Program-made: the position numbers and the translations under genes
Part shown: in pieces, positions 1-40,500 of the stretch
How positions within the stretch are numbered: position 1 is the first letter of the stretch
Layout of the letters: each line of letters begins with the position of its first letter
Source of the DNA: Escherichia phage phiKT
Sequence record: JN882298
Strand: one strand, 5' to 3'
DNA: 42,608 bases
The notes under the pieces: model-generated
Database searches by the model: none
The model's input: only the letters and a program-made list of their open reading frames with translations
What the model was told of the DNA's origin: nothing

Positions 1-1
1 C

Positions 2-427
2 GCTGAAAAGTCACCATACGAAGACTCAGTATATGCTACATGTGCTCGCTATGGCCTTAAGCCCGGAGATAAGTTCAAGGTAATCAACGCAGACCTTTAC
101 AAGGGTTTATCCGTTGGTGATATTGTAACTCTGCGAGAGGACGATGGTTCACCTTGCCCGTACTTTATCCGTGAGGCTACAGGACGGCTGGTATGTATCT
201 GCTTAGCGCGCCTCGTACCAGTGGCGGCTAACCAATCCAATATACGGGCACCCACCGCAACCCTGTCCACAGTGGACCAATTCAAATCAGAGATTGACGC
301 GTTACGTGCCAAGGCTACACAGAAGCGCGACCAGATTGCTCAGCTCTCAGAAGAGATTGCCGGGATTAACATCGCTATCTACAACACACGCAAGAAACTC
401 AAAGCCAGCTTAGACGGGTACATCTGA
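2..427 (+). CDS. Early hypothetical protein, 5'-truncated at the window edge (C-terminal coiled-coil-like segment)
   Basis: Frame 2 is open from the first base to the stop at 425..427; it is in frame with the ORF that runs off the right edge (42283..42608) if the sequence is circular. Confidence 0.5.
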   Translation, partial: AEKSPYEDSVYATCARYGLKPGDKFKVINADLYKGLSVGDIVTLREDDGSPCPYFIREATGRLVCICLARLVPVAANQSNIRAPTATLSTVDQFKSEIDALRAKATQKRDQIAQLSEEIAGINIAIYNTRKKLKASLDGYI

Positions 428-445
428 TGCTCAAAGGTGACAAAC

Positions 446-11222: not shown

Positions 11223-11942
11223 ATGTTAGTAATGCTCTCTGGCGCGATTGGCGCTGGCAAAGATACCTTCGGTGAGTTCCTGTACGACTCATTTGACAAG
11301 TTCGGCTACAACGTGGAAGTGGTGAAGTTTGCCGACCCCATTCGTGAAGCTGCATTTAAGCTCGGATTCAATCCAGATGACCGGGCAACCAAGGAAGTAC
11401 CTGCAATACGCCATTATAAACTCTCAGAACTTGATGAGGCCATTTTTACTACTCATACCTGCCTGACACCTTACGAGCGCCGAATGGTCGCTGTACGAGT
11501 TCACCAGAGATTAATTAACATCCGTAAGGAAAAGCACGATGGCATTTATAAACCTGTCGTCAGTACGCGGGAGTTTATGCAGGTGGTTGGCGGCACTGTC
11601 CGAGATGCAGATGTGGATTACTATATCAAACACATGTTATCCAATGTACCCGTTGGGCGAATTAACATCTGCACTGACTCTCGGTTCCTTAACGAGCAAA
11701 AAATCGGGGATTATTCAATCTACGTTGAGCGTCCAAACAACCCGCTGGCGGTTAATACTCTCGACGCCTCGGAAGCAGCACAAGCATCGCTCCGAGGGGC
11801 GGCGAAGAAAGTAATCCTGAACAACAGCACTCTGGATAATCTGGCAGAAATGGCAGACTATGTGGCTACAACACTAATTTCAAAAGGGTATTGTGATGAT
11901 GCAGTTAAAGAGTCAAGCGGAACTGGAATCCTTATCGAGTGA
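11223..11942 (+). CDS. P-loop kinase (dNMP/nucleotide kinase-like)
   Basis: Walker A (GAIGAGKDT) at the N-terminus; 239 aa; 3' end overlaps the RNAP start. Confidence 0.55.
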   Translation: MLVMLSGAIGAGKDTFGEFLYDSFDKFGYNVEVVKFADPIREAAFKLGFNPDDRATKEVPAIRHYKLSELDEAIFTTHTCLTPYERRMVAVRVHQRLINIRKEKHDGIYKPVVSTREFMQVVGGTVRDADVDYYIKHMLSNVPVGRINICTDSRFLNEQKIGDYSIYVERPNNPLAVNTLDASEAAQASLRGAAKKVILNNSTLDNLAEMADYVATTLISKGYCDDAVKESSGTGILIE

Positions 11943-14367
11943 ACGCGGCCTTGCCAAGCTGATGGCCGAGTGTGAGCAGGCTGAATCAGCGGGGCGTGCA
12001 TCCGGCGCGTTTTATGCCAAGCAGTTGTTAGAGCGTTTTGTTAACCGTATGGCCGAACGTATTGACCACGAGATGGCGAATCCGGGTGCTGGCCGCGCGA
12101 AAGCGCATAAGAAACTGGTCGCTGTGTTTGACTCAAAAGTCACTGCGTTTATTTCTGTATCAACCACATTGAATATGCTGATGGTCAACGAGCAGACACC
12201 GGGCACCAGCCTTAGTCGCGCCCTCGGCAATGCAATGTACAACGAACTGTTCTGCACCACGTTCGACGATGCCAACCCGGACCTGTTCCACACCATCTGC
12301 AAGGACTTGGATAAGCGCCAGAGCAAATCCAGCCGCCACCGCATGACTGTGCTGAAGAATCAGGCAGCGAAGAAGGGTATCGCGTGGGAGAACTGGACCG
12401 TCACCGAAATCCTTCAGGTTGGTGAGTGGTGTCTGGATAATCTGGTGTCAGTTGGCCTGTGCGAAACGCATACCGAGGTGTCTCGCGGTAAGGCGAAGAT
12501 GTACGTGGAACTGTCCGACGAGGCGCTGGGAATGATTGAGGATACCAAACGTCTGGTGTCCTTCTTCCGGCCCCAGCGCCTCCCGTTCGTAGAGAAGCCT
12601 CTGGACTGGACCGGGATTGTTGGTGGTGGCTACCATACTGCTCGTATGCAGAGTACGATGCCTCGTTGCATCAAAGCCAGCCCGACCCAGATGGATGTAC
12701 TCATAAAGCATCGTGACGACTACAAGGGTACGGTGGTGGCGTGCATTAACACTCTGCAATCGGTAGAGTGGCGTATCAACAAGCGTATTCTGGAAGTGCA
12801 GCAGCAGATGTTCCGTGGCTTTGAGCCGAAGAACAAGCCGGATGCGCTGGAGTGTCATAGCAAGGACGTTGAGGATTGGACAGAGGCAGATAAATCTCTA
12901 CACAGCCACTGGAAGAAGGAAATGGCTCGCTGGTACACAGAGCAGCGTGCAGAGCGTTATGCCGCTTCACGACATGCCTACACGTTGTCAGTGGCACGAG
13001 AGTTCGCTGACTACCCGCGTATCTGGTTCATGTACTTCGCTGACTGGCGGGGCCGTTACTACCCGGCCACCACAGGCATCTCGCCGCAGGGGACCGACAT
13101 CTCTAAATCCATGCTGGAGTTCGCCAATGGCAAGCCCATCTCTGACCCAATCGCAGAACAGTTCTTCTTCCTCCTTGGTTCAACTAAATTCGGATTCGAC
13201 AAAGGCTCTATATCCGAACGAGTTCAGTGGGTTCACGAGAATCACGAACTTATCATGGCGTGTGCCGACGAACCGCTACTTCATACTGATTTCTGGTACA
13301 GAGAGGCAGATAAGAAGACCCGTTACCAATTTCTGGCATGGTGTTTTGAATATGCTGAATACAAACGGTTCCCGGCTGGATTTGTATCACGACTTCCGGT
13401 ATCTCTTGATGGCACATGTAACGGCCTACAACACTATTCGGCGATGTTACGAGATTCGGTTGGTGCTAAAGCTACCAACTTGTTACCTGCTAACCGACCA
13501 AACGATATTTACGCGCAAGTCGCAGGCGTTGTCACCAACCTTCTTGAAAGCATGTCACCTGCTGACTTCCCGGCACTGACACGCGAATCTAAGCCTCTCA
13601 GCATCTATGAGGTGGATTTTTTCAGGAGGGGGTGGTTACACCACGGCATTAGCCGTAGCCTCGTTAAACGGTGCGTTATGACGTTACCTTACGGGTCCAA
13701 GAAGTTCAGCATGGGTCGCTTCATTAAGGGCGATTACATGCTGGATATTCACCCGGAAGAGTTCGACACCGACGACTACACCGACGCGGCGAACTTCCTT
13801 GGCGATATAGTCTGGAAGGCTATCGGGATGGTGGTAGAGAAGGCGGTCGGCGGCATGAGCTACTTTCAAGGCACCAGCCGAGCAATTACCCGCAAGAAAG
13901 ACGTTGAGGTCATCCAGTGGCCGAGCATGACCGGACTTCCAATTGTTCAGGATTATTGGAAGACAGAGTACGTACAGTTCCGCTCAGTACGTGGTGGTGG
14001 TGCTCGACTGAAGTGTCTGGTCGAAACGGACAAGATTGACAAGCTGGGACATGCCAACGGAATCGCACCCAACATTGTTCACAGTCTGGATGCAGCGCAC
14101 TTAACGTTCGTTACGCTGGCCGCAGCAAAGGCTGGCATTGACTCCTTCGCAATGATTCACGACGACTACGGAACCCACGCAGCCGACACAGCACTCCTGT
14201 TCAAGCTCATCCGTGAAGAGTTCGTCAAGATGTACGAGCAAGACCCTTTCACAATGATTGCTGAAGCTCTTGAAGCACAAGCAATATCCAAGTATGTTCC
14301 TGCCAGACCAGAGTTCGGCGACCTCGACTTACAGCAGGTCAATCACTCCGAATACTTCTTCCTGTAG
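11896..14367 (+). CDS. Single-subunit DNA-directed RNA polymerase (T7-like)
   Basis: Motifs DGTCNGLQHYSAM and HDDYGTH match T7 RNAP active-site motifs A/C; ~820 aa; followed by a terminator and a phage-promoter-like motif. Confidence 0.9.
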   Translation: MMQLKSQAELESLSSERGLAKLMAECEQAESAGRASGAFYAKQLLERFVNRMAERIDHEMANPGAGRAKAHKKLVAVFDSKVTAFISVSTTLNMLMVNEQTPGTSLSRALGNAMYNELFCTTFDDANPDLFHTICKDLDKRQSKSSRHRMTVLKNQAAKKGIAWENWTVTEILQVGEWCLDNLVSVGLCETHTEVSRGKAKMYVELSDEALGMIEDTKRLVSFFRPQRLPFVEKPLDWTGIVGGGYHTARMQSTMPRCIKASPTQMDVLIKHRDDYKGTVVACINTLQSVEWRINKRILEVQQQMFRGFEPKNKPDALECHSKDVEDWTEADKSLHSHWKKEMARWYTEQRAERYAASRHAYTLSVAREFADYPRIWFMYFADWRGRYYPATTGISPQGTDISKSMLEFANGKPISDPIAEQFFFLLGSTKFGFDKGSISERVQWVHENHELIMACADEPLLHTDFWYREADKKTRYQFLAWCFEYAEYKRFPAGFVSRLPVSLDGTCNGLQHYSAMLRDSVGAKATNLLPANRPNDIYAQVAGVVTNLLESMSPADFPALTRESKPLSIYEVDFFRRGWLHHGISRSLVKRCVMTLPYGSKKFSMGRFIKGDYMLDIHPEEFDTDDYTDAANFLGDIVWKAIGMVVEKAVGGMSYFQGTSRAITRKKDVEVIQWPSMTGLPIVQDYWKTEYVQFRSVRGGGARLKCLVETDKIDKLGHANGIAPNIVHSLDAAHLTFVTLAAAKAGIDSFAMIHDDYGTHAADTALLFKLIREEFVKMYEQDPFTMIAEALEAQAISKYVPARPEFGDLDLQQVNHSEYFFL

Positions 14368-14401
14368 TACCTCGGCCAAGGATGGCTACCCTCCCCCCTA
14401 T

Positions 14402-14420
14402 TTCGTCACCTACAATAGCA
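14402..14420. repeat. Exact 19-nt sequence ttcgtcacctacaatagca, copy 1 (intergenic, after RNAP)
   Basis: Identical 19-mer at 19222..19240 inside the scaffolding gene. Confidence 0.7.
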
Positions 14421-14453
14421 CACAATACCCTCAAACTGTTCGTTTTGAACACT

Positions 14454-14493
14454 AGCCTTGGCCTCTTTGGTCAGGGCTATTTTTTCTGTTTTT
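14454..14493 (+). terminator. Rho-independent terminator downstream of the RNAP gene
   Basis: ~10-bp stem (agccttggcc/ggtcagggct, one G-U and one mismatch) followed by a T-run (attttttctgttttt). Confidence 0.55.
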
Positions 14494-14533
14494 GGGTATT
14501 CGTTAAATATGGCTTGAAGCCTTGATATATGGG

Positions 14534-14560
14534 GTTTCCGCACATTATTTTAATAAGGGG
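14534..14560 (+). promoter_or_regulatory. Phage RNAP promoter-like motif, copy 1
   Basis: gtttccgcacattattttaataagggg; near-identical copy at 38018..38044; ends in a TATA-AGGG(AG) element like T7-type promoters. Confidence 0.5.
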
Positions 14561-14576
14561 TCTGGAGGGTGTTAAA

Positions 14577-14924
14577 ATGTTCCTTAAATTTTTACTTTGG
14601 TTAATTTCTAAGTTAAGCGAAAGCCAACTTAGTAAGGTAAGAGATTATTACCTGATTAGTGGTCCATACCGTAGTGAATTAGAAAGACTACATTCCCGGA
14701 TTAGTGAGTTAGAGGGTGCTCTTTCCTCCTCAGAGTCTGTACCAGAACCTGTTACAGAAATATTCAGTAGAATGAACTATGAGGTGTACGAATACTTTGA
14801 GCGTACAGTAAGTAATACTTCTGTAGCTAGTTCTACTACTGATTTAGAAGCTGGGTTTAAATTAGGTGTCCAGCATGTTCTCGCCAAGTTGAGGAATGGG
14901 TATGTCACACCGCGAAGTCTCTGA
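14577..14924 (+). CDS. Hypothetical protein, AT-rich accessory gene (N-terminal hydrophobic segment)
   Basis: Track ORF 14529..14924; ATG at 14577 with GGAGGGTG RBS; by eye much lower GC and different codon choice (tta, agt, aga) than neighbours. Confidence 0.5.
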   Translation: MFLKFLLWLISKLSESQLSKVRDYYLISGPYRSELERLHSRISELEGALSSSESVPEPVTEIFSRMNYEVYEYFERTVSNTSVASSTTDLEAGFKLGVQHVLAKLRNGYVTPRSL

Positions 14925-15330
14925 TTCTGATTGGGTAGCTAGTGTTCCTAAGTTGGTTGAGGCTATTTGCAACTCACCTAGCAGGATGATATGTGATATT
15001 GACGTAGAGGCTACTCTGGCCCATTTTATGGCCGTAGCCACTCGTGGCGGTGCGTATATTGTCAAGGAGAAGTATCTGGTCGTATTCGACCGCTACAAGC
15101 TCTGGTACGCACCTACCAAGGATATTATCGAAGAGAAGATTGTCCTGTGTATTTATCCAGAAAATCCCGGCTCAATGTTCGATGTTGTCCGATTTCTAAT
15201 TGAACAACGTGATTACCTTGAAGCGAATCACTTGGTCATAGGTGACTTCCTGCACACTAATCAGGAAAAGTATGGTCGAGTCCTAACTAAATTAGGGTTG
15301 ACCAAAATCAACTCAGTTTACGCATGTTAG
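14902..15330 (+). CDS. Hypothetical protein, second gene of the AT-rich accessory pair
   Basis: ATG at 14902 with GAGGAA RBS; 142 aa; no motif recognised. Confidence 0.5.
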   Translation: MSHREVSDSDWVASVPKLVEAICNSPSRMICDIDVEATLAHFMAVATRGGAYIVKEKYLVVFDRYKLWYAPTKDIIEEKIVLCIYPENPGSMFDVVRFLIEQRDYLEANHLVIGDFLHTNQEKYGRVLTKLGLTKINSVYAC

Positions 15331-15340
15331 GAGGTTCCCA

Positions 15341-15943
15341 ATGGGAGGCTTACTCGGAGGGGGCGATAACGGGAAGGCTCAAGCAAAAGCGACCCGTGAA
15401 GCTGCCGAACGTCAGGCACAGGCAACATTGCAGGCCGCACGGGAGCAGATAGCGGCTCAGAACCGTCAGGCGGCTGCACAGAATCAATGGTCCAGTCAGC
15501 AGGCCGCGCAACAGCGTGAGTTTGAGGCCCAGCTAAATAAGACCAATCAAGAATACCAATCAACCCTACAAGCACAACAGCTTGCTCAGCAGAAAGCACT
15601 CACTGAACAGACTAACGCCATTAACAAGGCGTATCAGGACAAGATGGCTAGTCTGCAACAGCAGGCCAACGAACAACAGCAGTTTGAGTACACCCAGCAG
15701 CTTCTACAGTCCGCCGCAGACGCACAGCGCCAGCAGGCACTGAAGGATGCGCAGGATGCTACTTGGATGCCGCAGGAACAGGTCGAGGTTACTCTGGCCC
15801 CGGATAGCTCCACATATCTGGACGAGCAACGTCGTAGACGTCCCGTGAGCAACCTATACAACGGTGCTGGTAACGTGAACACGGCTTCGGCGGATACATC
15901 GTCTGCAAGTGGCACAGGGCTTTCTAGTGGCTTGAGGATTTAA
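15341..15943 (+). CDS. Gln/Ala-rich putative virion protein
   Basis: Strong RBS (TAGGAGG); low-complexity Q/A-rich coiled-coil-like protein upstream of the portal. Confidence 0.5.
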   Translation: MGGLLGGGDNGKAQAKATREAAERQAQATLQAAREQIAAQNRQAAAQNQWSSQQAAQQREFEAQLNKTNQEYQSTLQAQQLAQQKALTEQTNAINKAYQDKMASLQQQANEQQQFEYTQQLLQSAADAQRQQALKDAQDATWMPQEQVEVTLAPDSSTYLDEQRRRRPVSNLYNGAGNVNTASADTSSASGTGLSSGLRI

Positions 15944-15944
15944 T

Positions 15945-16883
15945 ATGACCGATGATGAAGCTCGCCAACTTGCTCAATGGGGCGAGGATGAGATTGCCCG
16001 AATACTGGGCCTGAACAGAAACTCATATTTGTCGGCACAGGGACAGTCGGTGGCTGACTGGTCCAGCCGCTGGTCCTCCGGCCTGCAAGATATTGTGGGT
16101 TACTATGACCAAGGTAAGGCCAACTCCCTGTACGCATCACTTGGTGGAACTACATCGGATACATACCTCAAACAGTTGTCGATGCTGGCAGAGGAATCCA
16201 ACAAGCTCTACACCATGATTAATAACCCCAATGCAGTGCATTCCAAGCTCCGGGCAGAGGCCGGGAAGCAGGGCGGTGTAGCGCAGTTCTCTATCGGTAT
16301 GGGTTATCGTACTGAGGGCAACGGCGGTTACGTTTACGACCTGATGGGCAACAGATACAACGATATAACGATGAGTCTGCTGTACAAATCCCTGTATAGC
16401 ATGGTTGATAGCTTCAGCAATCAACAAGGTAAAATCGTTAACGAGTTGAATGCACAGCAGGGTCGTGAGCAGAACTATATCAGTCAGATTAGTGGTTTAT
16501 TGCAGCAGGGTACATTAGCAAAGACCAAGGCTGAGCAGGAAGCGCAGAAGAAGGCGCTTGAGCAGCAATATGCACAGCAACAGGCAGAACTGAACAAGCA
16601 GGCTGAAGAGAATGCACGTATCCTCAAGGAGAAGCAGGAAGCTCAGACCAAGATGTTCAACGAGTCCGCTAAGGTTACGGCGGAATCCAACGCAGCGACA
16701 TCCCAGCTTCAACAGGCCAAATCTGCTGCCACTCAGGTAGCCAGTGTAGGTACATCTCGCGGTGGTGAGGCAATATCCTCAACCAACGCAGCCGCTAAAT
16801 CAAAGACCAGACAAACCACGCGTACTGAACGCTGGCAGTCAACCCGCTCCCCAGCCGCTGGCGGTGGCGGCATCAACGTTTAA
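15945..16883 (+). CDS. Putative virion protein (coiled-coil C-terminal half)
   Basis: 312 aa; sits between the Q-rich protein and the portal; by my reading of the printed sequence the ATG falls at 15946, so the 5' coordinate may be off by 1. Confidence 0.5.
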   Translation: MTDDEARQLAQWGEDEIARILGLNRNSYLSAQGQSVADWSSRWSSGLQDIVGYYDQGKANSLYASLGGTTSDTYLKQLSMLAEESNKLYTMINNPNAVHSKLRAEAGKQGGVAQFSIGMGYRTEGNGGYVYDLMGNRYNDITMSLLYKSLYSMVDSFSNQQGKIVNELNAQQGREQNYISQISGLLQQGTLAKTKAEQEAQKKALEQQYAQQQAELNKQAEENARILKEKQEAQTKMFNESAKVTAESNAATSQLQQAKSAATQVASVGTSRGGEAISSTNAAAKSKTRQTTRTERWQSTRSPAAGGGGINV

Positions 16884-18457: not shown

Positions 18458-19378
18458 ATGACCGTATCAACTCCGTCAACTCCGGTACAACAAGCAGCAG
18501 CCCCGGCGGCTGCTCCGGCACCACAAGCTCCGGCACAGAGCGGCATCCCGTATGTTCCGCCTGCCCCTGTAGCTCCGGCTGCTCCGGTGGAAGCACCGCA
18601 AGCAACGCTTGACCCGAATCAATTCGCTAACCCGTCTCAGGCAGGCACCCCCGCCGCCCCGGTACAGCAGCCAGCACCGCAGTCTCAACCGCAGGCTCCC
18701 GTAGAGCCGCCAGCACAGCAGACGCCATCGCAGGCAGAATTAACGCTGACAGAGAAACCGTTGTACAAGCACGAGCCTACTGGCAACGCTGCTTATGATA
18801 TGGCTATGAATGCCTTCGCAGCCAAGGGATTCTCCCCGGACCACCCTGCATTCGTCCCGGCATCAAAAGGCGACTTCTCCGCACTGGAGGCGTTCGTCAA
18901 GGAGCAGGGCATAGACCCACAATATCTGGCCTTGGCCCAACAGGCTTACGTCCAGATTTCTGAGCACCACAACGCCACTCATGGCGAGACTATCAAGAAA
19001 GCACTGGAAGTCGCTGGTGGTCAGGAACGCTGGAACAAGGTGCAGGAATGGGTTCAGAACGTAGCCAGCCCGGAAGAGATTACTTACTACAAACAGCAAC
19101 TGGAAGCTGGCGGTATCGCAACCCTGAAAGCGGTTGAATATCTGTCCGGCCTGTACGGCCAGCACGCAGAGAACGCTCCGGCACAGCCTAGCGAATCGCC
19201 TGCTACCCCGTTCAATACCAATTCGTCACCTACAATAGCAACTAACGGTGCCCCGATTTCCCCGCAAGAATTTCGGGCAGAACTGTCTCGTCTCATTGAC
19301 AAGGTAGGGTACTCCGGTCTGGAAACCTCACCGGAATACAAAGCGTTGCAACAACGTCGTCAGGCGTGGCGCGGGTAA
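18458..19378 (+). CDS. Capsid scaffolding protein
   Basis: Between portal and major capsid; Pro/Ala/Gln-rich N-terminal third. Confidence 0.65.
   Translation: MTVSTPSTPVQQAAAPAAAPAPQAPAQSGIPYVPPAPVAPAAPVEAPQATLDPNQFANPSQAGTPAAPVQQPAPQSQPQAPVEPPAQQTPSQAELTLTEKPLYKHEPTGNAAYDMAMNAFAAKGFSPDHPAFVPASKGDFSALEAFVKEQGIDPQYLALAQQAYVQISEHHNATHGETIKKALEVAGGQERWNKVQEWVQNVASPEEITYYKQQLEAGGIATLKAVEYLSGLYGQHAENAPAQPSESPATPFNTNSSPTIATNGAPISPQEFRAELSRLIDKVGYSGLETSPEYKALQQRRQAWRG
19222..19240. repeat. Exact 19-nt sequence ttcgtcacctacaatagca, copy 2 (inside scaffolding gene)
   Basis: Matches 14402..14420 exactly. Confidence 0.7.
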
Positions 19379-31093: not shown

Positions 31094-31122
31094 GGTGGGC
31101 TTCGGCCCACCTCTATTTTATT
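31094..31122 (+). terminator. Rho-independent terminator/attenuator before the tail fiber gene
   Basis: 7-bp stem ggtgggc/gcccacc with ttcg loop followed by tctattttatt. Confidence 0.6.
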
Positions 31123-31132
31123 GGAGATTTTG

Positions 31133-33916
31133 ATGGCTATTACGTTTTATGCTACCAACAACTTCACTGGTGATGGTACTACCGTAAACTGGAATATTAA
31201 CTTCGCAGACGGTTACATCGACACCACCGACGTGAAGGCGCGGTATCTGGATAATACCGGGAGCTACGTTGACATCGCTATTTCAAGCGTGGCAGGAAAC
31301 GTAGTAACCATTTCCCCGGCTGTGGCGGACGGTCAGGAGTTCCAAATCTATCGTGATACAGAGAAGCGGTTCCCGCTGGTGGACTTCTCTGACGGTGCAA
31401 TCCTCAACGAGACTAACCTTGACACGCTGGCTACCCAGGCTGTGATGGTATCCGCTGAGGCATTCGACCAATCTAACAACGGTGTACGTATTGCTGGTGA
31501 TTCCTTGACTATCGCGCAAGGTATCGACGCCAAGGCACAGCTGGCTCTGGACAACTCCGAGGCTGCTGTAGCTACAGCGAACGGTATCGACGGTAAAGCG
31601 CAGACGGCATTGAATACCGCCGCCGCCGCTGTCGCCACGGCTAATGCTGCCACATCTACTGCTGCTGGTGCTGTATCTACGGCCAACACCGCACTGTCTA
31701 CTGCCAACGATGCCGCCGATGACGCAGCTACCGCTGTCACTACCGCTAACGCCGCTGTGACTACGGCCAATGCTGCAACCACTACGGCCAACGCCGCTAG
31801 TGCTGCCGCCTCTGCTGCAACGACTACTGCGAACAATGCTGCAAACGACGCTGCTACTGCTGTGTCTACTGCGAATACGGCCTTGTCTACTGCGAACACC
31901 GCATCTACCAACGCCTCTACCGCTGTGTCCACGGCTAACGCCGCTAAGGCTACTGCTGAGGGTATCGAGGCTAAAGCGGATTCTGCTTTGGCAGCTTCTG
32001 CTAACGCTGTGACCACAGCTAACGCAGCTGAGGCTACGGCTAATGCTATCGACGGTAAGGCTACGGACGCACTAAACACTGCTGATGCCGCTGAGGCTAC
32101 GGCTAATACTGCCGCTGCTACTGCGAGTTCGGCTGCTGCTGACGCCAGTACCGCTTTGAGCACAGTTACTGCTGCTGACACAAAGGCACAGACTGCTCTG
32201 GATAATATCGCGTCTCTGGATGCGGCCACCATGAAGAAAGCAGCTAACCTGTCTGATATTGCGGATAAGGCGGCTGCATGGCTTAACGTCCGTCCAATTG
32301 GCTCCACGCCATTGGCAGGCGACCCGGTAGGTGACTACGATGCTGTTACTAAGCGTTGGGTAGAGAACCTGATTAACACAGGTACTGTTGGTCCGACCAT
32401 GAATGGTGTGATGAACTACGGCGTTGGTGATTTTCATCTTCGTGATAGTCGCGCATACATTCAGCCGTATGAGGTTGTATCCGACGGTCAATTACTGAAC
32501 CGCGCTGATTGGCCTGAACTTTGGTCTTATGCGCAAATGTTGTCGCCCATCACCGATGCAGACTGGCTTGCTGACCCGCAAAAGCGCGGCAAGTATTCAC
32601 TAGGTAACGGCGCAACAACATTCCGCGTACCGGACCGCAACGGGGTTCAGGCAGGTTCAATAGCTGCATTGTTTGGCCGTGGTGATGGCGGGGTGTCATC
32701 TAGTGATGGGACAATTCTTGACAGTGCTGCACCAAACATTACAGGCTCATTTGGCCGATTGGTTTACGCGTCAACAGGCACTATTTATGAAGGAAACACA
32801 GGGACAGGTGCCTTCTCTGCTTTCTCACCACAAGCAAAATATAAAAAGATGTCAGACCTATCTTCAATTGATGCTCAGGCAGCGGAATATCCTTCTGGGT
32901 ATGAATTCTTCGCATCAAATTCAAGCCCGGTCTATGGTAGAGGTTCAACAGAAGTCCGACCCAAAGCATTCACTGGTGTTTGGGTGATTCGCGCATCTGG
33001 TGGATTTGTTGCTGCGAATACCCTGTGGAGTGTTATTAATGGCGATGCTACTAAACCCGCTAACAACACAAGTGTTAACGGTGGAGAGATTCAGTCTGAA
33101 TACCGTATTGGTACTCAGGTTGAAGGTAAAACATCTCTGCGATTTGTCGGTACTATCGGTCAGGCTTATGCTGCGCGCCTGAACGTATCAAATAACTCAA
33201 ATACTAATGCCTTTATCTACGATTTCGATGAGTATGGTCGGGTTAACTTCGGCAAACCGGGTGGTGTGATCAAATCTGGTGATATTACTCTGGATATGGC
33301 ATCCAACGGCGATTTCTACGTTACCACAACCCGTTTACGTGTAGAACACCCTACCTCTGGTGGTCAGACTATGGGGATATCCACTCAAGGTGGGGCCAAC
33401 CGTGGTGCTGATCAGGGGTGGTTTGAGCACTGGGGTAACTCCTATGGCGGTGGTTCTGACAAATCTCGTGCAACTGTTGTTGAACTTAAGATTGGTACTG
33501 GTTATGCGTGGTACAGTCAGAAACTAGCGAGTGGCGTATATGAAACCAGATTTGCAAGTGCAATCTATGCAACTGCATTCACTCAAAACTCTGATGAACG
33601 TATCAAGGAAAACATCGAGCGTATTAGCGATCCGTTGGAAAAGATGAAGCAAATTAAAGGTGTTTCATGGAATTTTAAAACGGTTGGTAATGCAAAAGGT
33701 TACGGCTTTATCGCACAGGATGTGGAAAGGGTACTCCCTGAAGCTGTAAGTGTCGGAGGTGGTGAACTGGAACTGACTGACGGTACTAAGGTATCCGATG
33801 TTAAATCGGTAAACACCAGCGGTGTGGCTGCTGCACTCCACCACGAAGCTATCCTAGCTTTGATGGATAAGGTTGAGGCTCTGGAAGCACGCATTGCAGA
33901 ACTAACTTCTCAGTAA
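31133..33916 (+). CDS. Tail fiber protein (T7 gp17-like anchor, Ala/Thr heptad stalk, collar-type receptor-binding region, C-terminal intramolecular chaperone)
   Basis: Track ORF 31121..33916; ATG at 31133 with GGAG RBS; N-terminus (QIYRDTEKRFPLVDFSDGAILNE) resembles the T7 gp17 anchor; tail-collar-like motif (GNGATTFRVPDRNG); last 108 aa (SDERIKENIERISD...) resemble the S74 chaperone domain. Confidence 0.8.
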   Translation: MAITFYATNNFTGDGTTVNWNINFADGYIDTTDVKARYLDNTGSYVDIAISSVAGNVVTISPAVADGQEFQIYRDTEKRFPLVDFSDGAILNETNLDTLATQAVMVSAEAFDQSNNGVRIAGDSLTIAQGIDAKAQLALDNSEAAVATANGIDGKAQTALNTAAAAVATANAATSTAAGAVSTANTALSTANDAADDAATAVTTANAAVTTANAATTTANAASAAASAATTTANNAANDAATAVSTANTALSTANTASTNASTAVSTANAAKATAEGIEAKADSALAASANAVTTANAAEATANAIDGKATDALNTADAAEATANTAAATASSAAADASTALSTVTAADTKAQTALDNIASLDAATMKKAANLSDIADKAAAWLNVRPIGSTPLAGDPVGDYDAVTKRWVENLINTGTVGPTMNGVMNYGVGDFHLRDSRAYIQPYEVVSDGQLLNRADWPELWSYAQMLSPITDADWLADPQKRGKYSLGNGATTFRVPDRNGVQAGSIAALFGRGDGGVSSSDGTILDSAAPNITGSFGRLVYASTGTIYEGNTGTGAFSAFSPQAKYKKMSDLSSIDAQAAEYPSGYEFFASNSSPVYGRGSTEVRPKAFTGVWVIRASGGFVAANTLWSVINGDATKPANNTSVNGGEIQSEYRIGTQVEGKTSLRFVGTIGQAYAARLNVSNNSNTNAFIYDFDEYGRVNFGKPGGVIKSGDITLDMASNGDFYVTTTRLRVEHPTSGGQTMGISTQGGANRGADQGWFEHWGNSYGGGSDKSRATVVELKIGTGYAWYSQKLASGVYETRFASAIYATAFTQNSDERIKENIERISDPLEKMKQIKGVSWNFKTVGNAKGYGFIAQDVERVLPEAVSVGGGELELTDGTKVSDVKSVNTSGVAAALHHEAILALMDKVEALEARIAELTSQ
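31510..32280 (+). repeat. Heptad-coded Ala/Thr repeat tract inside the tail fiber gene
   Basis: Protein shows more than 13 consecutive heptads of the form [ST]TAN.A. plus longer repeated units (ATANGIDGKAQTALNTA-like), from imperfect 21-bp DNA repeats. Confidence 0.7.
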
Positions 33917-34297: not shown

Positions 34298-36093
34298 GAG
34301 AATCAGCAGAAAGAGAAGAACAACGGCTACTTGAACTCGCAGCACTGCGGGACATGTACCCCACGTTCCTACCGTTTCTGATTGATTTCATGGTGATGCT
34401 CGGATTCTTCGTCACACCGGTACAGAAGCTCATTGCTCAATTCCTTGAGTACGGGCCTCTGTATCGGATGGTGCAGGCCCAGCGTGGTCAGGCGAAGACT
34501 ACCATCACAGCCGCATATGCAATCTGGCGACTTATCCACGATACCAACCTTGCCGTGTTGATCGTCTCGGCAGGGGGCAAGCAGGCGAACGAGATTTCAA
34601 CTCTCATCGTCCGCTCGTTCAAAACGTGGGATAGGCTGGCCTGCATGTGTCCTGACGCCTCTATGGGCGACCGTGAGTCAGTCGAAGCATTCGACGTTCA
34701 CTACAACTTAAAGAGGCTGAATAAATCTCCATCCGTGGCCTGTACTGGTATCACGGGTAACTTGCAGGGTAAACGTGCGGGTCTGCTTATCGCGGACGAC
34801 GTTGAGTCCCAGAAGAACTCCCTGACTGCGGTCATGCGTGAGAACCTCCTGAACCTGACTCGTGACTTTACCTCAATATGCTCCACCGGGGATATTATCT
34901 ACCTCGGTACACCACAGACTACAGAATCAATTTATAACACCTTGCCGGGGCGTGGCTTTACTGTCCGCATCTGGCCGGGACGTTTCCCTAACGCAGAACA
35001 GGTGGAAGCCTACGGCGACCAGCTATGCCCTGTCTTTAGGATGAAGATTGCTTCACGCCCTGACCTGACTACAGGCTACGGGCCGGATGGGCTTCAGGGT
35101 GCTCCGGTTGACCCGGTAATCCTTGGTGAAGCCTTCCTGAACAAGAAAGAGATTGACCAAGGGACTGCATACTTCCAGTTGCAGCACATGCTTCAGACGC
35201 GCCTGATGGATGCTATGCGCAAGCCATTACACGCAGAGAAGCTGATTGTGGCCCAACTGCCGAAGCGGGACGGTCTGTTCCCTATCACCATTACGCGAGA
35301 AATCTCTGTACAAGCCTACATGCGCCGAAACGTCCTGAGCAAGCCTCTGGTATTCGGTGTGCCCGGTAGCGTGTCTAAGGACGTCGCTACGCTTCAGGGC
35401 GTATGCTTCTACATCGACCCCGCTGGTGGTGGTAAGAACGCGGATGAAACTGCATTCGCTTGTACCGGGTTCCTGAACTCCAATATCTTCTTGCTGGATT
35501 GGGGCGGCTTACCGGGCGGATATGCCCCGGATGTTATGACCGCTCTCGCCCAACGTGTGTTTGAAGTGCGGCCCAATGTTGTCAAAATCGAAAAGAACTT
35601 CGGTTACGGCGTTCCGCGAAGTATGGTTGCCGTACCTCTGGGCCATTTTGATAAAGCTGGTGTTAACCGTCCCGGCGTAGAGGACGATATGGTACACGGC
35701 CAGAAGGAGAAGCGAATCATTGATACGCTTGAGCCTGTAATGGGTCGTGGCTCGCTCATTGTTGACGAGCGTCTCATCAAGGAAGACGAAGACCAGACCA
35801 TGCGGTACAGCGCACAAATGCGTGTGACGTACTCCGGGTTCCTACAGATGGTTAATATCTCCTACGACAAAGATGCGTTGGTGCATGATGACCGACTGGA
35901 TGCTTTGGAAGGAGCGGTTCGTCATTGGCAGGATTGGCTGGCCAAGAACCAAGAGAAGGCCATTCAGGCTCAACGGAAACGTGAGTTCGAAGAGTGGCAG
36001 AAAGACCCGATGATGAAGAAGCGTTGTCAGTCCGTGAAGGAATACAATGCTGGTCGTCGTGGTAAAACCATGTTTGATAAGAGAAAACGCTAA
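34288..36093 (+). CDS. Terminase large subunit
   Basis: 601 aa; ATPase P-loop-like segment (QRGQAKTT) and C-terminal nuclease-type acidic motifs; position as T7 gp19. Confidence 0.85.
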   Translation: MALRESAEREEQRLLELAALRDMYPTFLPFLIDFMVMLGFFVTPVQKLIAQFLEYGPLYRMVQAQRGQAKTTITAAYAIWRLIHDTNLAVLIVSAGGKQANEISTLIVRSFKTWDRLACMCPDASMGDRESVEAFDVHYNLKRLNKSPSVACTGITGNLQGKRAGLLIADDVESQKNSLTAVMRENLLNLTRDFTSICSTGDIIYLGTPQTTESIYNTLPGRGFTVRIWPGRFPNAEQVEAYGDQLCPVFRMKIASRPDLTTGYGPDGLQGAPVDPVILGEAFLNKKEIDQGTAYFQLQHMLQTRLMDAMRKPLHAEKLIVAQLPKRDGLFPITITREISVQAYMRRNVLSKPLVFGVPGSVSKDVATLQGVCFYIDPAGGGKNADETAFACTGFLNSNIFLLDWGGLPGGYAPDVMTALAQRVFEVRPNVVKIEKNFGYGVPRSMVAVPLGHFDKAGVNRPGVEDDMVHGQKEKRIIDTLEPVMGRGSLIVDERLIKEDEDQTMRYSAQMRVTYSGFLQMVNISYDKDALVHDDRLDALEGAVRHWQDWLAKNQEKAIQAQRKREFEEWQKDPMMKKRCQSVKEYNAGRRGKTMFDKRKR

Positions 36094-36329
36094 TGACTAT
36101 TGCTGCACAACTCCCAGACCCGAAGCTCGACGTTAAGGGCGACCGACTGCGTTTCCTGTTGGCCGCTTGTATCAGCGAGTGTAATATCCAAGCAGACAAC
36201 GGTGCGTATGATAAAGGCACCAGCTTCAAAGCCCTGCTTACTGCCGCTGCTGCACTCGTGAAGGTAGCTCCGGTAGAACCTGAAGACCCGGAAGACCCTG
36301 AAGACCCTGAAGACCCTGAAAACCCGTAA
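36093..36329 (+). CDS. Small hypothetical protein with C-terminal PEDPEDPEDPEDPENP repeat
   Basis: TAATG overlap with the terminase stop; C-terminus encoded by five tandem 9-bp units. Confidence 0.4.
   Translation: MTIAAQLPDPKLDVKGDRLRFLLAACISECNIQADNGAYDKGTSFKALLTAAAALVKVAPVEPEDPEDPEDPEDPENP
36283..36327. repeat. 5 x 9-bp tandem repeat (gaagaccc[g/t])
   Basis: Tandem units read directly in the sequence; encodes the (PED)n tail of the 36093..36329 ORF. Confidence 0.85.
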
Positions 36330-37810: not shown

Positions 37811-37854
37811 TAAAATTTGATATAATTTTGTGAGGGGGCAGTCCAACACAAATG
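37811..37854. repeat. Direct repeat (a)gggcagtcc flanking an AT-rich palindrome
   Basis: agggcagtcc at ~37811..37820 and gggcagtcc at ~37846..37854 flank taaaatttgatataatttt. Confidence 0.5.
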
Positions 37855-37886
37855 AGGTCGCGTTTCCCCCGTAGGCCCGGCCTTCT

Positions 37887-37958
37887 GGATGGCTGAATGG
37901 CTGGATGGATGGATGGCTGGACGGCTAGACGTTTAGACGGCTAAATGGCCAAATGACC
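37887..37958. repeat. Tandem array of nine imperfect 8-bp units (consensus ggatggct)
   Basis: ggatggct gaatggct ggatggat ggatggct ggacggct agacgttt agacggct aaatggcc aaatgacc read in strict 8-nt register. Confidence 0.8.
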
Positions 37959-38017
37959 GTAAAAAAGGGCCGTGTGCACTGATAGGGTCAATCGGGCTGT
38001 AGGTCGCGCCAACCGGA

Positions 38018-38044
38018 GTTTCCGCACATTACTTTATAAGGGAG
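38018..38044 (+). promoter_or_regulatory. Phage RNAP promoter-like motif, copy 2
   Basis: gtttccgcacattactttataagggag; matches 14534..14560 except for one substitution and one indel. Confidence 0.5.
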
Positions 38045-38134
38045 CTTGTAAGGTGTCTGGCGGCGATCCGTCTGACGACGGGAGAAGGGAAGAGACGTGG
38101 GGTATCTATCTTTTTGTGATTAGTGTTAGTTGTG

Positions 38135-38165
38135 TATCTATCTATCTATGTATGTATGTATATCC
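38135..38165. repeat. Tetranucleotide microsatellite (tatc)3(tatg)3
   Basis: tatctatctatctatgtatgtatgtata read directly. Confidence 0.8.
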
Positions 38166-40251: not shown

Positions 40252-40500
40252 ATGCGCAAACTTAGTGAAATTGTACATCATACCCACGTATTCTATAACA
40301 GCAAGGGTTATCTGTGGATAACCCTGAAGGAAGTGCGACCTGACGGGCGTCGTCGTGTGGTAGTACGTAAAATGAACAGCAAATACTTCAGTAATTGGTC
40401 ATTGGATACAGTACGCATTAATAACGAGACTTTTCAGATTGACTCACAGATTGACCTACAACCAACGGCAAGCCATTCCGCACCATATTTCTCCAACTGA
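40252..40500 (+). CDS. Early hypothetical protein (basic)
   Basis: GGGAGGA RBS; ATG one nt after the upstream stop; 82 aa. Confidence 0.5.
   Translation: MRKLSEIVHHTHVFYNSKGYLWITLKEVRPDGRRRVVVRKMNSKYFSNWSLDTVRINNETFQIDSQIDLQPTASHSAPYFSN

Follow-up and report, generated by a model that had tools for sequence, protein, structure and literature searches.

The precedent for a small gene and a Gcn5-related N-acetyltransferase (GNAT) gene 3' of a phage RNA polymerase (RNAP) gene is the gp27/Rac pair of Pseudomonas phage LUZ19. In this phage, gp28 (Rac) is a GNAT whose gene lies 3' of the RNAP gene and overlaps the first structural gene; the protein brings about cleavage of the alpha subunit of the host RNAP, probably via acetylation of host factors, and shuts down host transcription (PMC7552054). 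The Rac screen covered 14 LUZ19 genes, i.e., ten early genes and the four that flank the RNAP gene, two to a side, and Gp4, Gp5, and Gp28 alone inhibited growth when expressed (PMC7552054). Experimental mapping has placed phage-specific promoters of LUZ19 both directly 3' of the RNAP gene and within the structural region (PMC10914365), and in T7, phi1.1B, directly 3' of gene 1, is the primary replication origin, and phiOL and phi6.5 are origin-associated promoters that act as secondary origins (PMC8373140). Here, we describe the RNAP-to-late junction of Escherichia phage phiKT (sequence record JN882298; the window, i.e., the whole stretch of DNA analyzed, is 42,608 nucleotides (nt) long), in which two overlapping genes, 13 and 14, follow the RNAP gene. 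The two were deposited as hypothetical genes; what the present analysis adds is a confident GNAT-fold annotation for the second gene product and the description of a regulatory hub, AT-rich and conserved, that may be an origin.

Genes 13 and 14 form a vertically inherited pair under purifying selection that follows the RNAP gene in phiKT and all its relatives, and the pair recurs, in homologous or positionally equivalent form, in many other Autographiviridae with an RNAP gene beside the structural genes. The explanation we prefer, namely that the pair opens the late (virion) operon and is a vertically inherited, conserved unit and not an acquired island, is fairly probable when taken as a whole.

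The layout of LUZ19 (gp26, gp27, gp28, portal) parallels that of phiKT in several respects. Both have an RNAP gene, a gap of ~170–210 nt with phage promoters (putative ones in phiKT), a small gene, and a gene for a GNAT-fold protein of ~150 amino acids (aa) that overlaps its neighbours, followed by small virion proteins and the portal gene, with a GC trough at the junction; gp27 and gp28 occupy the position of the phiKT pair. T7 resembles phiKT in its class III leader (promoter phi6.5 and genes 6.5, 6.7, 7, and 7.3), where the first late genes are small and of unknown function and are followed by a ~135-aa protein, gp7.3-like virion proteins, and the portal. The T7 HNH gene 7.7 also lies in the same interval as the HNH genes of the phiKT relatives L003 and L004. 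Unlike phiKT, T7 has its RNAP gene far from the late genes, and the elements that come after the RNAP gene and those that come before the first late gene, which coincide in phiKT, are separate. In addition, the T7 AT tracts are intergenic, whereas the phiKT tract extends into coding sequence.

The gene pair and its conservation

Gene 13 (open reading frame (ORF) 14577..14924, plus strand; 115 aa) and gene 14 (ORF 14902..15330, plus strand; 142 aa) overlap by 23 nt and carry the public identifiers phiKT_00013 and phiKT_00014, both annotated as hypothetical. The gene 14 protein is exactly phiKT_00014, and the gene 13 protein clusters, at 90% identity, with phiKT_00013, whose annotated start is further upstream. 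The public phiKT annotation places the two starts at 14529 and 14896; those kept in relatives are 14577 and 14902, the gene 13 proteins of relatives beginning MFLKFLL... and the gene 14 proteins M(S/Y/L)(F/Y)RE..., and the upstream ATG at 14529 is not conserved (it is ATA in L003 and L004). Purifying selection acts on both genes, with dN/dS values of 0.08–0.34 for the C-terminal domain of gene 13, 0.26–0.41 for its N-terminal part, and 0.11–0.24 for gene 14. These values, together with in-frame indels, indicate that both ORFs are real coding genes. The initial annotation, made from the letters alone, had described two overlapping genes after the RNAP gene, a terminator, and a promoter-like motif, and this layout is borne out by the ORFs, their overlap, a hairpin, and two such motifs (described below).

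Relative to the physical ends, the phiKT sequence is circularly permuted: the left end of Escherichia phage PGT2 (Ermolevavirus, Autographiviridae) maps to 37842, and its 260-bp terminal repeat to ~37842–38103. From this left end, the order is early genes, DNA metabolism, the RNAP gene (11893–14367), and then all virion and lysis genes, i.e., the phiKMV-type arrangement. The pair region is 97.9% identical to PGT2, and the order RNAP, gene 13, gene 14, Q-rich protein, ~300-aa protein, portal is found in PGT2 and in four metagenomic relatives, even where protein identity falls as low as 42% for gene 13 and 54% for gene 14.

Beyond these relatives, homologous, adjacent, and overlapping pairs lie directly 3' of the RNAP gene in Caulobacter phages Percy and Cd1, Brevundimonas phages Babayka and BC, and Ralstonia phage RS-PII-1 (RSB1 gp27/gp28), in all of which the C-terminal domain of the first gene belongs to PHROG 5112 and the second gene to PHROG 6472. 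These pairs are true homologues of both phiKT genes, but the first gene encodes only the bare domain (54–62 aa), without the N-terminal extension seen in phiKT; all are annotated as hypothetical and add no functional information. In Yersinia phage phiR8-01, a PHROG 5112 gene is followed by a T7-gp7-like gene. PHROG 5112 can be delineated as a widespread family of small proteins always encoded 3' of the RNAP gene.

HNH homing-endonuclease genes are present around the pair in L003 (6832–7380) and L004 (4435–4860 and 6808–7215), lying after gene 14, between genes 13 and 14, and before the portal gene. The borders of the pair are insertion hot spots; the pair itself is fixed.

Base composition and putative regulatory elements of the junction

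Gene 13 and its leader form the deepest GC trough of the phiKT genome at window sizes of 200, 350, and 750 nt. The minimum, at 14471–14820, has a GC content of 0.369, compared with a genome mean of 0.516 (standard deviation (sd) 0.032 at 350 nt). Gene 13 has a GC content of 0.39 and a GC content at third codon positions (GC3) of 0.33, the latter being ~0.55–0.6 elsewhere in the genome; its codon-adaptation index, 0.606, falls short of the null (0.751 ± 0.054), none of 5000 random chunks of other genes being as low, and TTA, AGT, and AGA are enriched 7–10-fold. Gene 14 has a GC content of 0.443, ~2 sd low, and its codon-adaptation index of 0.724 (z = −0.8) is matched or undercut by 21% of random chunks; codon counts show no enrichment of TTA, AGT, or AGA in this gene, and no notable enrichment of ATA in either. 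The low GC and unusual codon preference ascribed earlier to both genes hold for gene 13 and not for the codon use of gene 14, and ATA drops out of the list altogether.

This composition is shared by relatives. Gene 13 is AT-rich in all close relatives, including those at 42–44% identity, with GC of 0.34–0.40 and GC3 of 0.28–0.375 in loci of 0.50–0.55, and gene 14 ranges from 0.44 to 0.53, the L002 copy (0.534) matching its genome (0.545). In a search covering 7–12 kb per locus, all 11 loci, which represent eight genera or lineages, had their lowest-GC 300-mer at the junction, −267 to +130 nt from the start of the small gene, and in most genera, the RNAP and portal genes have a higher GC3 than the first one or two late genes. 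The phiR8-01 trough is intergenic, lying in the gap rather than within a gene. The AT-richness is centred on the leader and gene 13, reaches synonymous sites, and is kept at the junction across genera; because gene 13 is AT-rich in every close relative and the trough recurs in all 11 loci, low GC is an old, position-specific property and not a sign of recent transfer.

These observations bear directly on the recent horizontal acquisition suggested in the initial annotation, in which the pair would have come from an AT-rich donor, with takeover, anti-defence, or exclusion functions as its cargo. Gene 13 is indeed a strong outlier in GC, GC3, and codon adaptation, and the HNH insertions beside the pair show that the neighbourhood tolerates insertions. 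Against this, the pair is at the same position in every relative examined, with homologous or equivalent pairs in other genera; gene 13 stays AT-rich as its sequence diverges; gene 14 has ordinary codon use and, in L002, a genome-like GC content; and no mobility genes flank the pair within the window. Recent acquisition is very improbable, and the observation that the initial annotation named as speaking against it, homologues at this position in all relatives, is what we find. The AT-rich, promoter-proximal pair, seemingly acquired cargo, is among the most positionally conserved parts of the genome, and composition alone would mislead island-hunting scans at the RNAP/late junction in all phiKMV-like phages.

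The leader between the RNAP gene and gene 13 contains two phage-promoter-like motifs and a terminator. Motif 1, ATTTCGTCACCTACAATAGCAC (14399..14421, plus strand; 19–20 nt), lies directly 3' of the RNAP stop, is conserved in relatives, and has a second copy within the end of the scaffold gene, ~190 nt 5' of the capsid gene (19219..19241, plus strand); there are exactly two copies in the genome, with none expected by chance. The copies co-vary per phage, ending in ...CCTACAATAGCA twice in phiKT, in ...CCCAATGTAGCA twice in L002 (at 3447 and 8401), and in ...CCTAG(A/T)ATAGCA in L005 (at 5510 and 10382). Judged by its sequence, a motif pair with a shared, lineage-specific variant behaves like a promoter that co-evolves with its RNAP, and motif 1, located like the phage-specific promoters of LUZ19, is the best candidate for a phage-RNAP promoter in phiKT. 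As a candidate promoter for phiKT-like RNAPs, it could serve orthogonal expression systems. Two copies per genome are in line with the small number of promoters reported for phiKMV-like phages. A likeness of the motifs to the LUZ19 promoter consensus was considered and dropped: they agree at 8–11 of 18 positions, and shuffled sequence attains 13–14.

Downstream of motif 1 is an intrinsic-terminator-like hairpin with an 11-bp stem and a T-run (14453..14489, hairpin 14453–14479, plus strand; −19 kcal/mol, z = −3.8), which shows compensatory stem changes in L002 and L005 and is kept in L066. Motif 2, GGGGTTTCCGCACATTATTTTAATAAGGGGTCTGGAGGGTGT (14531..14572, plus strand; 42 nt), includes the Shine-Dalgarno sequence GGAGG and ends 4 nt before the ATG of gene 13. 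It occurs exactly twice in the genome, the second copy (38015–38056, plus strand) being in the terminal repeat near the physical left end, and relatives keep it even where the RNAP gene has only 71% nucleotide identity. By eye, its 3' part looks like the end of the T7 promoter, ...TATAGGGAGA, and a sigma-70 scan near motif 2 gave weak matches of 9/12 at most. For the co-variation of its two copies, IMG/VR yielded PGT2 alone, as did an exact-protein look-up of the holin for relatives, and a metagenome scan returned 55 stretches, one of them related (L066, with the junction copy only).

The intergenic leader is better conserved than the coding N-terminal part of gene 13, including in L002, L005, and L066. 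The last of these (1–440, minus strand; 71% nucleotide identity in the RNAP gene) shares the terminator hairpin with phiKT, together with the block AAGCCTTGGTAT...GGTTTACGCACATTAATTTAT, and has an AT-rich gene 13 homologue (MFTKLIHILITYLVNKF...) and an additional GC-rich hairpin directly after the RNAP stop codon.

In terms of DNA stability, no 300-bp stretch of the genome is less stable, or more AT-rich, than 14546..14845 (no strand assigned; nearest-neighbour stability z = 4.9), where the top-ranked 40-, 60-, and 100-mers also lie. The core of this tract (14572–14631) and a second 60-mer (38103–38162, plus strand), both of 25% GC, rank as the genome's two most AT-rich 60-mers. Each lies 3' of a motif 2 copy, 0–60 nt and 47–107 nt downstream, respectively, and the two least stable 300-mers are at the same places. 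The same AT computation on the T7 regions examined places the top 60-mers after phiOL, phi1.1B, and phi6.5. The classical description of the AT-rich T7 origin is reportedly that of Saito et al. in 1980 and of Fuller and Richardson in 1985. The phiKT junction carries the sequence signature of a T7-type origin, with an AT tract that continues into gene 13. As an observation on the second site, 38103–38163 is a TATC/TATG microsatellite-like tract, TATCTATCTATCTATGTATGTATGTATAT, which begins exactly at the inner edge of the terminal repeat; PGT2 differs here.

In our preferred explanation, low GC would stem from a DNA-level constraint of a regulatory hub made of the two phage-promoter-like motifs, the terminator, and the easily melted tract, the arrangement by which T7 replication origins are marked. 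A sharper form of this idea is that the trough is itself a T7-type replication origin that overlaps gene 13 and forces AT-rich codons on it, with a second element at the terminal repeat. Besides the pairing of each motif 2 copy with a 25%-GC 60-mer and the recovery of origin-associated promoters in T7 by the same computation, the positions of motif 2 and AT tract match those of T7 phi1.1A/B and phiOL. Moreover, the AT bias at synonymous sites persists while gp13's N-terminal region drifts, which would be explained if an origin-type AT tract ran into gene 13, and the tract might also explain the F/L/K/I-rich N-terminus of gp13. Several points weigh against an origin: motif 1 is a better promoter candidate than the putative-promoter motif 2; the AT-rich zone is ~400 bp, far longer than the 61 bp of T7; AT-rich leaders are expected anyway at the 5' ends of operons; and cumulative GC and AT skews of the phiKT genome are uninformative, rising monotonically with no feature at 14.5 kb. 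A T7-type origin is on balance rather unlikely; it is compatible with the preferred explanation and would sharpen its DNA-level part.

The composition of gene 13 could also arise at the level of translation, with rare TTA, AGT, and AGA codons limiting the output of a small regulatory or potentially toxic protein, or by AT drift of a short, weakly expressed gene under relaxed selection. The codon-adaptation index of gene 13, the lowest of all genes, and its 7–10-fold enrichment in rare codons agree with such tuning, as does the GC3 of both pair members, which the RNAP and portal genes exceed in most genera; other small phiKT genes are also lowish in GC, e.g., 40252–40500 at 0.43. On the other hand, the C-terminal domain is under strong purifying selection, and a gene that comes first in the late operon and has a strong GGAGG site hardly looks unimportant. 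The non-coding leader matches the coding N-terminal part in AT-richness and exceeds it in conservation, and the phiR8-01 trough lies outside the gene. Tuning or drift is, in our view, unlikely.

Predicted structures and roles of gp14 and gp13

The product of gene 14 is the better characterized of the two. An AlphaFold2 (AF2) model of gp14, built on an alignment of 29 sequences, reached a pLDDT of 90.3 and a pTM of 0.84, and its order of elements, beta1-alpha1-alpha2-beta2-beta3-beta4-alpha3-beta5-alpha4-beta6, is exactly the GNAT topology. A Foldseek search of the PDB with this model returned GNAT-fold proteins for all of the top 50 matches, nearly all annotated as acetyltransferases (probability 0.98–1.00, TM 0.6–0.71). 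Along the same lines, a search of BFVD returned the phiKT protein itself, followed by uncharacterized proteins of many Autographiviridae and annotated phage acetyltransferases. At the profile level, gp14 matches PHROG 37045 and 6472, 10 of the 29 family members weakly match PHROG 1249 'acetyltransferase' (best E = 1.8e-3), which is also matched by LUZ19 Rac, and the UniRef name of one Ralstonia homologue is 'N-acetyltransferase domain-containing protein'. Neither gp14 nor its relatives match Pfam or NCBIfam, and the family profile has no match among PDB sequences. The family conserves a C-terminal stretch like GNAT motif B (G114-T-A-L117-A...R-V-(Y/L)-x-x-x-G132-F/L) and an invariant Glu on strand beta4. 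On the strength of the model, we are confident that gp14 (14902..15330, plus strand) has the GNAT acetyltransferase fold. The hypothetical family represented by phiKT gp14 (PHROG 6472 and 37045) can be newly annotated as GNAT-fold.

By fold, the family stands beside LUZ19 Rac as a candidate for acetylation-based host takeover in a coliphage, and, like Rac, gp14 is encoded by the second gene 3' of the phage RNAP gene and overlaps the start of the structural module. In the explanation we prefer, gp14 would act like Rac as an acetyl-CoA-dependent modifier of a protein target at the middle-to-late switch and would most likely help turn off host functions. Host takeover, one of the functions guessed for the pair in the initial annotation, is plausible for gene 14 only, by analogy with the fold and position of Rac, and nothing supports its other guesses, anti-defence or superinfection exclusion.

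Several results weigh against an enzymatic, Rac-like role. The acetyl-CoA loop of gp14 reads E87-N-P-G90-S-M92, compared with the canonical Q/R-x-x-G-x-G/A between beta4 and alpha3: the phiKT lineage keeps the Gly but has neither the basic residue nor the second G/A, and in distant members, the loop is shortened by 2 residues. Catalysis by gp14 is unproven because this loop is non-canonical and degenerate. The link to Rac is one of fold and position only: BLASTP finds nothing, hhalign gives E = 0.15 at a probability of 0.4% (the alignments for this comparison and for that with gp7 being shallow, of close relatives only), and gp14 does not match PHROG 3986. Cleavage of the alpha subunit is reported as specific to Phikmvvirus, and no such cleavage is caused by LKA1, which has a GNAT in the equivalent place (PMC7552054), so that a Rac-like target cannot be assumed for gp14. 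LUZ19 gp27, by position among the genes of the Rac screen, is not among the toxic proteins. With its different PHROGs (37045/6472 versus 3986) and different acetyl-CoA loop, gp14 is a positional counterpart of Rac with a GNAT fold and not a member of the Rac family, and a Rac-like, host-modifying role, argued by analogy, is possible without being probable.

The alternatives for gp14 are a role in virion maturation, suggested by the position of T7 gene 7, and a non-catalytic scaffold. In other words, gp14 might be a morphogenesis or 'host-range' factor like T7 gp7 that modifies or chaperones virion proteins, or a catalytically dead GNAT. The gene would be co-transcribed with the virion genes and lies directly before those for gp7.3-like small virion proteins, and the degenerate acetyl-CoA loop fits a dead enzyme. 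A single diverse positional family is suggested by phiR8-01 g032 (L008 4147–4572), which occupies the position of the second gene and matches both the T7 gp7 PHROG 2746 (1.4e-38) and the Rac PHROG 3986 (4.2e-4), a hint that the T7 gene 7 proteins, too, may be related to Rac as divergent GNAT-like proteins. The gp14 family itself, however, has no significant profile match to T7 gp7 (PHROG 2746; hhalign E = 0.54), and the role of T7 gp7 is taken here from a database label, 'host range and adsorption protein', only. A morphogenetic or scaffolding function is rather unlikely.

The product of gene 13 is built of two parts. The N-terminal extension (14577..14753, plus strand), which tolerates in-frame indels, consists of an amphipathic helix (residues 2–13) followed by variable coiled-coil-like helices, and is confined to the phiKT lineage and roughly a dozen further cluster representatives. 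The conserved C-terminal domain of ~50 aa (14754..14924, plus strand; residues ~62–111) has the pattern (V)-V-x-R-L-x-x-E-x-Y-x-x-L-E ... V-x-x-x-T-T-D-L-E-A-G-F-x-L-G-V-Q-x-V-L-x-x-L-R-x-G-Y-V. Residues 63–111 match the 60-position profile of PHROG 5112 with E = 8.9e-18, and an exhaustive profile search found 173 cluster representatives (E <= 1e-3), mostly of 56–90 aa and with the domain always C-terminal. The hydrophobic N-terminus noted in the initial annotation is present, but the helix, MFLKFLLWLISKL, is K/R-studded and amphipathic (moment 0.32) and too short for a membrane span; it is conserved enough to be functional. The coiled-coil-like middle proposed earlier fits a predicted long helix at residues 32–51 and weak matches to coiled-coil families.

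The AF2 model of gp13 is all-helical (helices 2–11, 15–28, and 32–51), of low confidence (pLDDT 65), and shows the C-terminal domain, as a monomer, as two helices with no strand. The fold search with this model returned noise only, and gp13 and its family profile have no meaningful match in Pfam, NCBIfam, or the PDB; both results weigh against the preferred explanation. The family profile aligns with LUZ19 gp27 (PHROG 6575) over the whole domain in hhalign (E = 1.1e-3, probability 20%, 42 columns), BLASTP finds no match between the two proteins, and gp27 differs in lacking the N-terminal amphipathic helix and coiled coil. The comparison with T7 gp6.5 (DUF2717, PHROG 1447) is not significant (hhalign E = 0.16), with no match to Pfam DUF2717. 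A ribbon-helix-helix C-terminal domain was considered from the by-eye pattern V-V-x-R-L-T-x-E-x-Y-x-x-L-E ... T-T-D-L and is not claimed, there being no match in Pfam or the PDB. Two family members match NikA-like at E = 0.057. Our best guess, held with low confidence, is that gp13 might be a small oligomeric regulator or adaptor, possibly DNA-binding, and it is this role that it would play beside gp14 in the preferred explanation.

A more ambitious proposal joins the DNA and protein observations. The RNAP-to-late junction of phiKT-like, and more broadly phiKMV-like, phages would be a combined late-promoter and replication-origin hub, with motif 2 occurring once here and once per terminal repeat, followed by an unwinding tract that was absorbed into gene 13. 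In such a hub, gp13, with its membrane-seeking helix, coiled coil, and ribbon-helix-helix-like domain, would tether or regulate the origin or late promoter, and the GNAT would modify host proteins. That all these parts hold jointly is quite improbable.

In LUZ19, the annotated gp27 ORF includes, 29 nt in, the second phage-specific promoter motif (L010 5313–5332). Transcripts from this promoter would lack full-length gp27, so the start of gp27 may be mis-annotated or gp27 may be made from the first promoter only.

Neighbouring genes and minor sequence features

Upstream of the pair, the single-subunit phage RNAP gene (11893..14367, plus strand) is an 824-aa ORF; relatives carry the Pfam domains RPOL_N and RNA_pol, and the PGT2 counterpart is annotated as RNA polymerase. 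The ORF overlaps the dNMP-kinase gene by ~50 nt (11893–11942), and the true RNAP start is probably the ATG at ~11896–11899, judging from relatives that start MTQLKTQ or MQLKTQ. The annotated RNAP gene of PGT2 is shorter (1971 nt; L001 3998–5968) and is labelled 'N4-like RNA polymerase', and megablast of the phiKT RNAP gene against that of PGT2 covers 80% in two pieces.

Downstream of gene 14 and before the portal gene, two Q-rich genes (15341..16883, plus strand; 15341–15943 and 15945–16883) that are conserved in relatives encode proteins of 200 and 312 aa. By eye, the C-terminus of the 312-aa protein, ...AAGGGGINV, resembles that of T7 gp7.3, ...SSGGGINI, and proteins at this position in other genera likewise have Gly-rich ends. 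The two Q-rich proteins are probably small virion or ejected proteins.

PGT2 differs from phiKT in two further respects. Between the metallophosphoesterase and dNMP-kinase genes, it carries a 498-nt gene absent from phiKT, and a T-run in gene 13 (14590–14594) that is TTTTT in phiKT and the other relatives is TTTT in PGT2 (NC_047890; L001 ~6190). The shorter run, five codons into the gene, produces a frameshift; gene 13 is unannotated in PGT2, and the tblastn match begins at residue 5. The frameshift is likely a homopolymer error since PGT2 was sequenced by 454.

Elsewhere in the window, the tail-fibre gene (31121–33916) contains Ala/Thr-rich repeats with a 21-nt period, in 14 copies at 31596–32187, and the ORF at 36093–36329 ends in five 9-nt tandem repeats (36263–36325) that encode roughly PEDPED....

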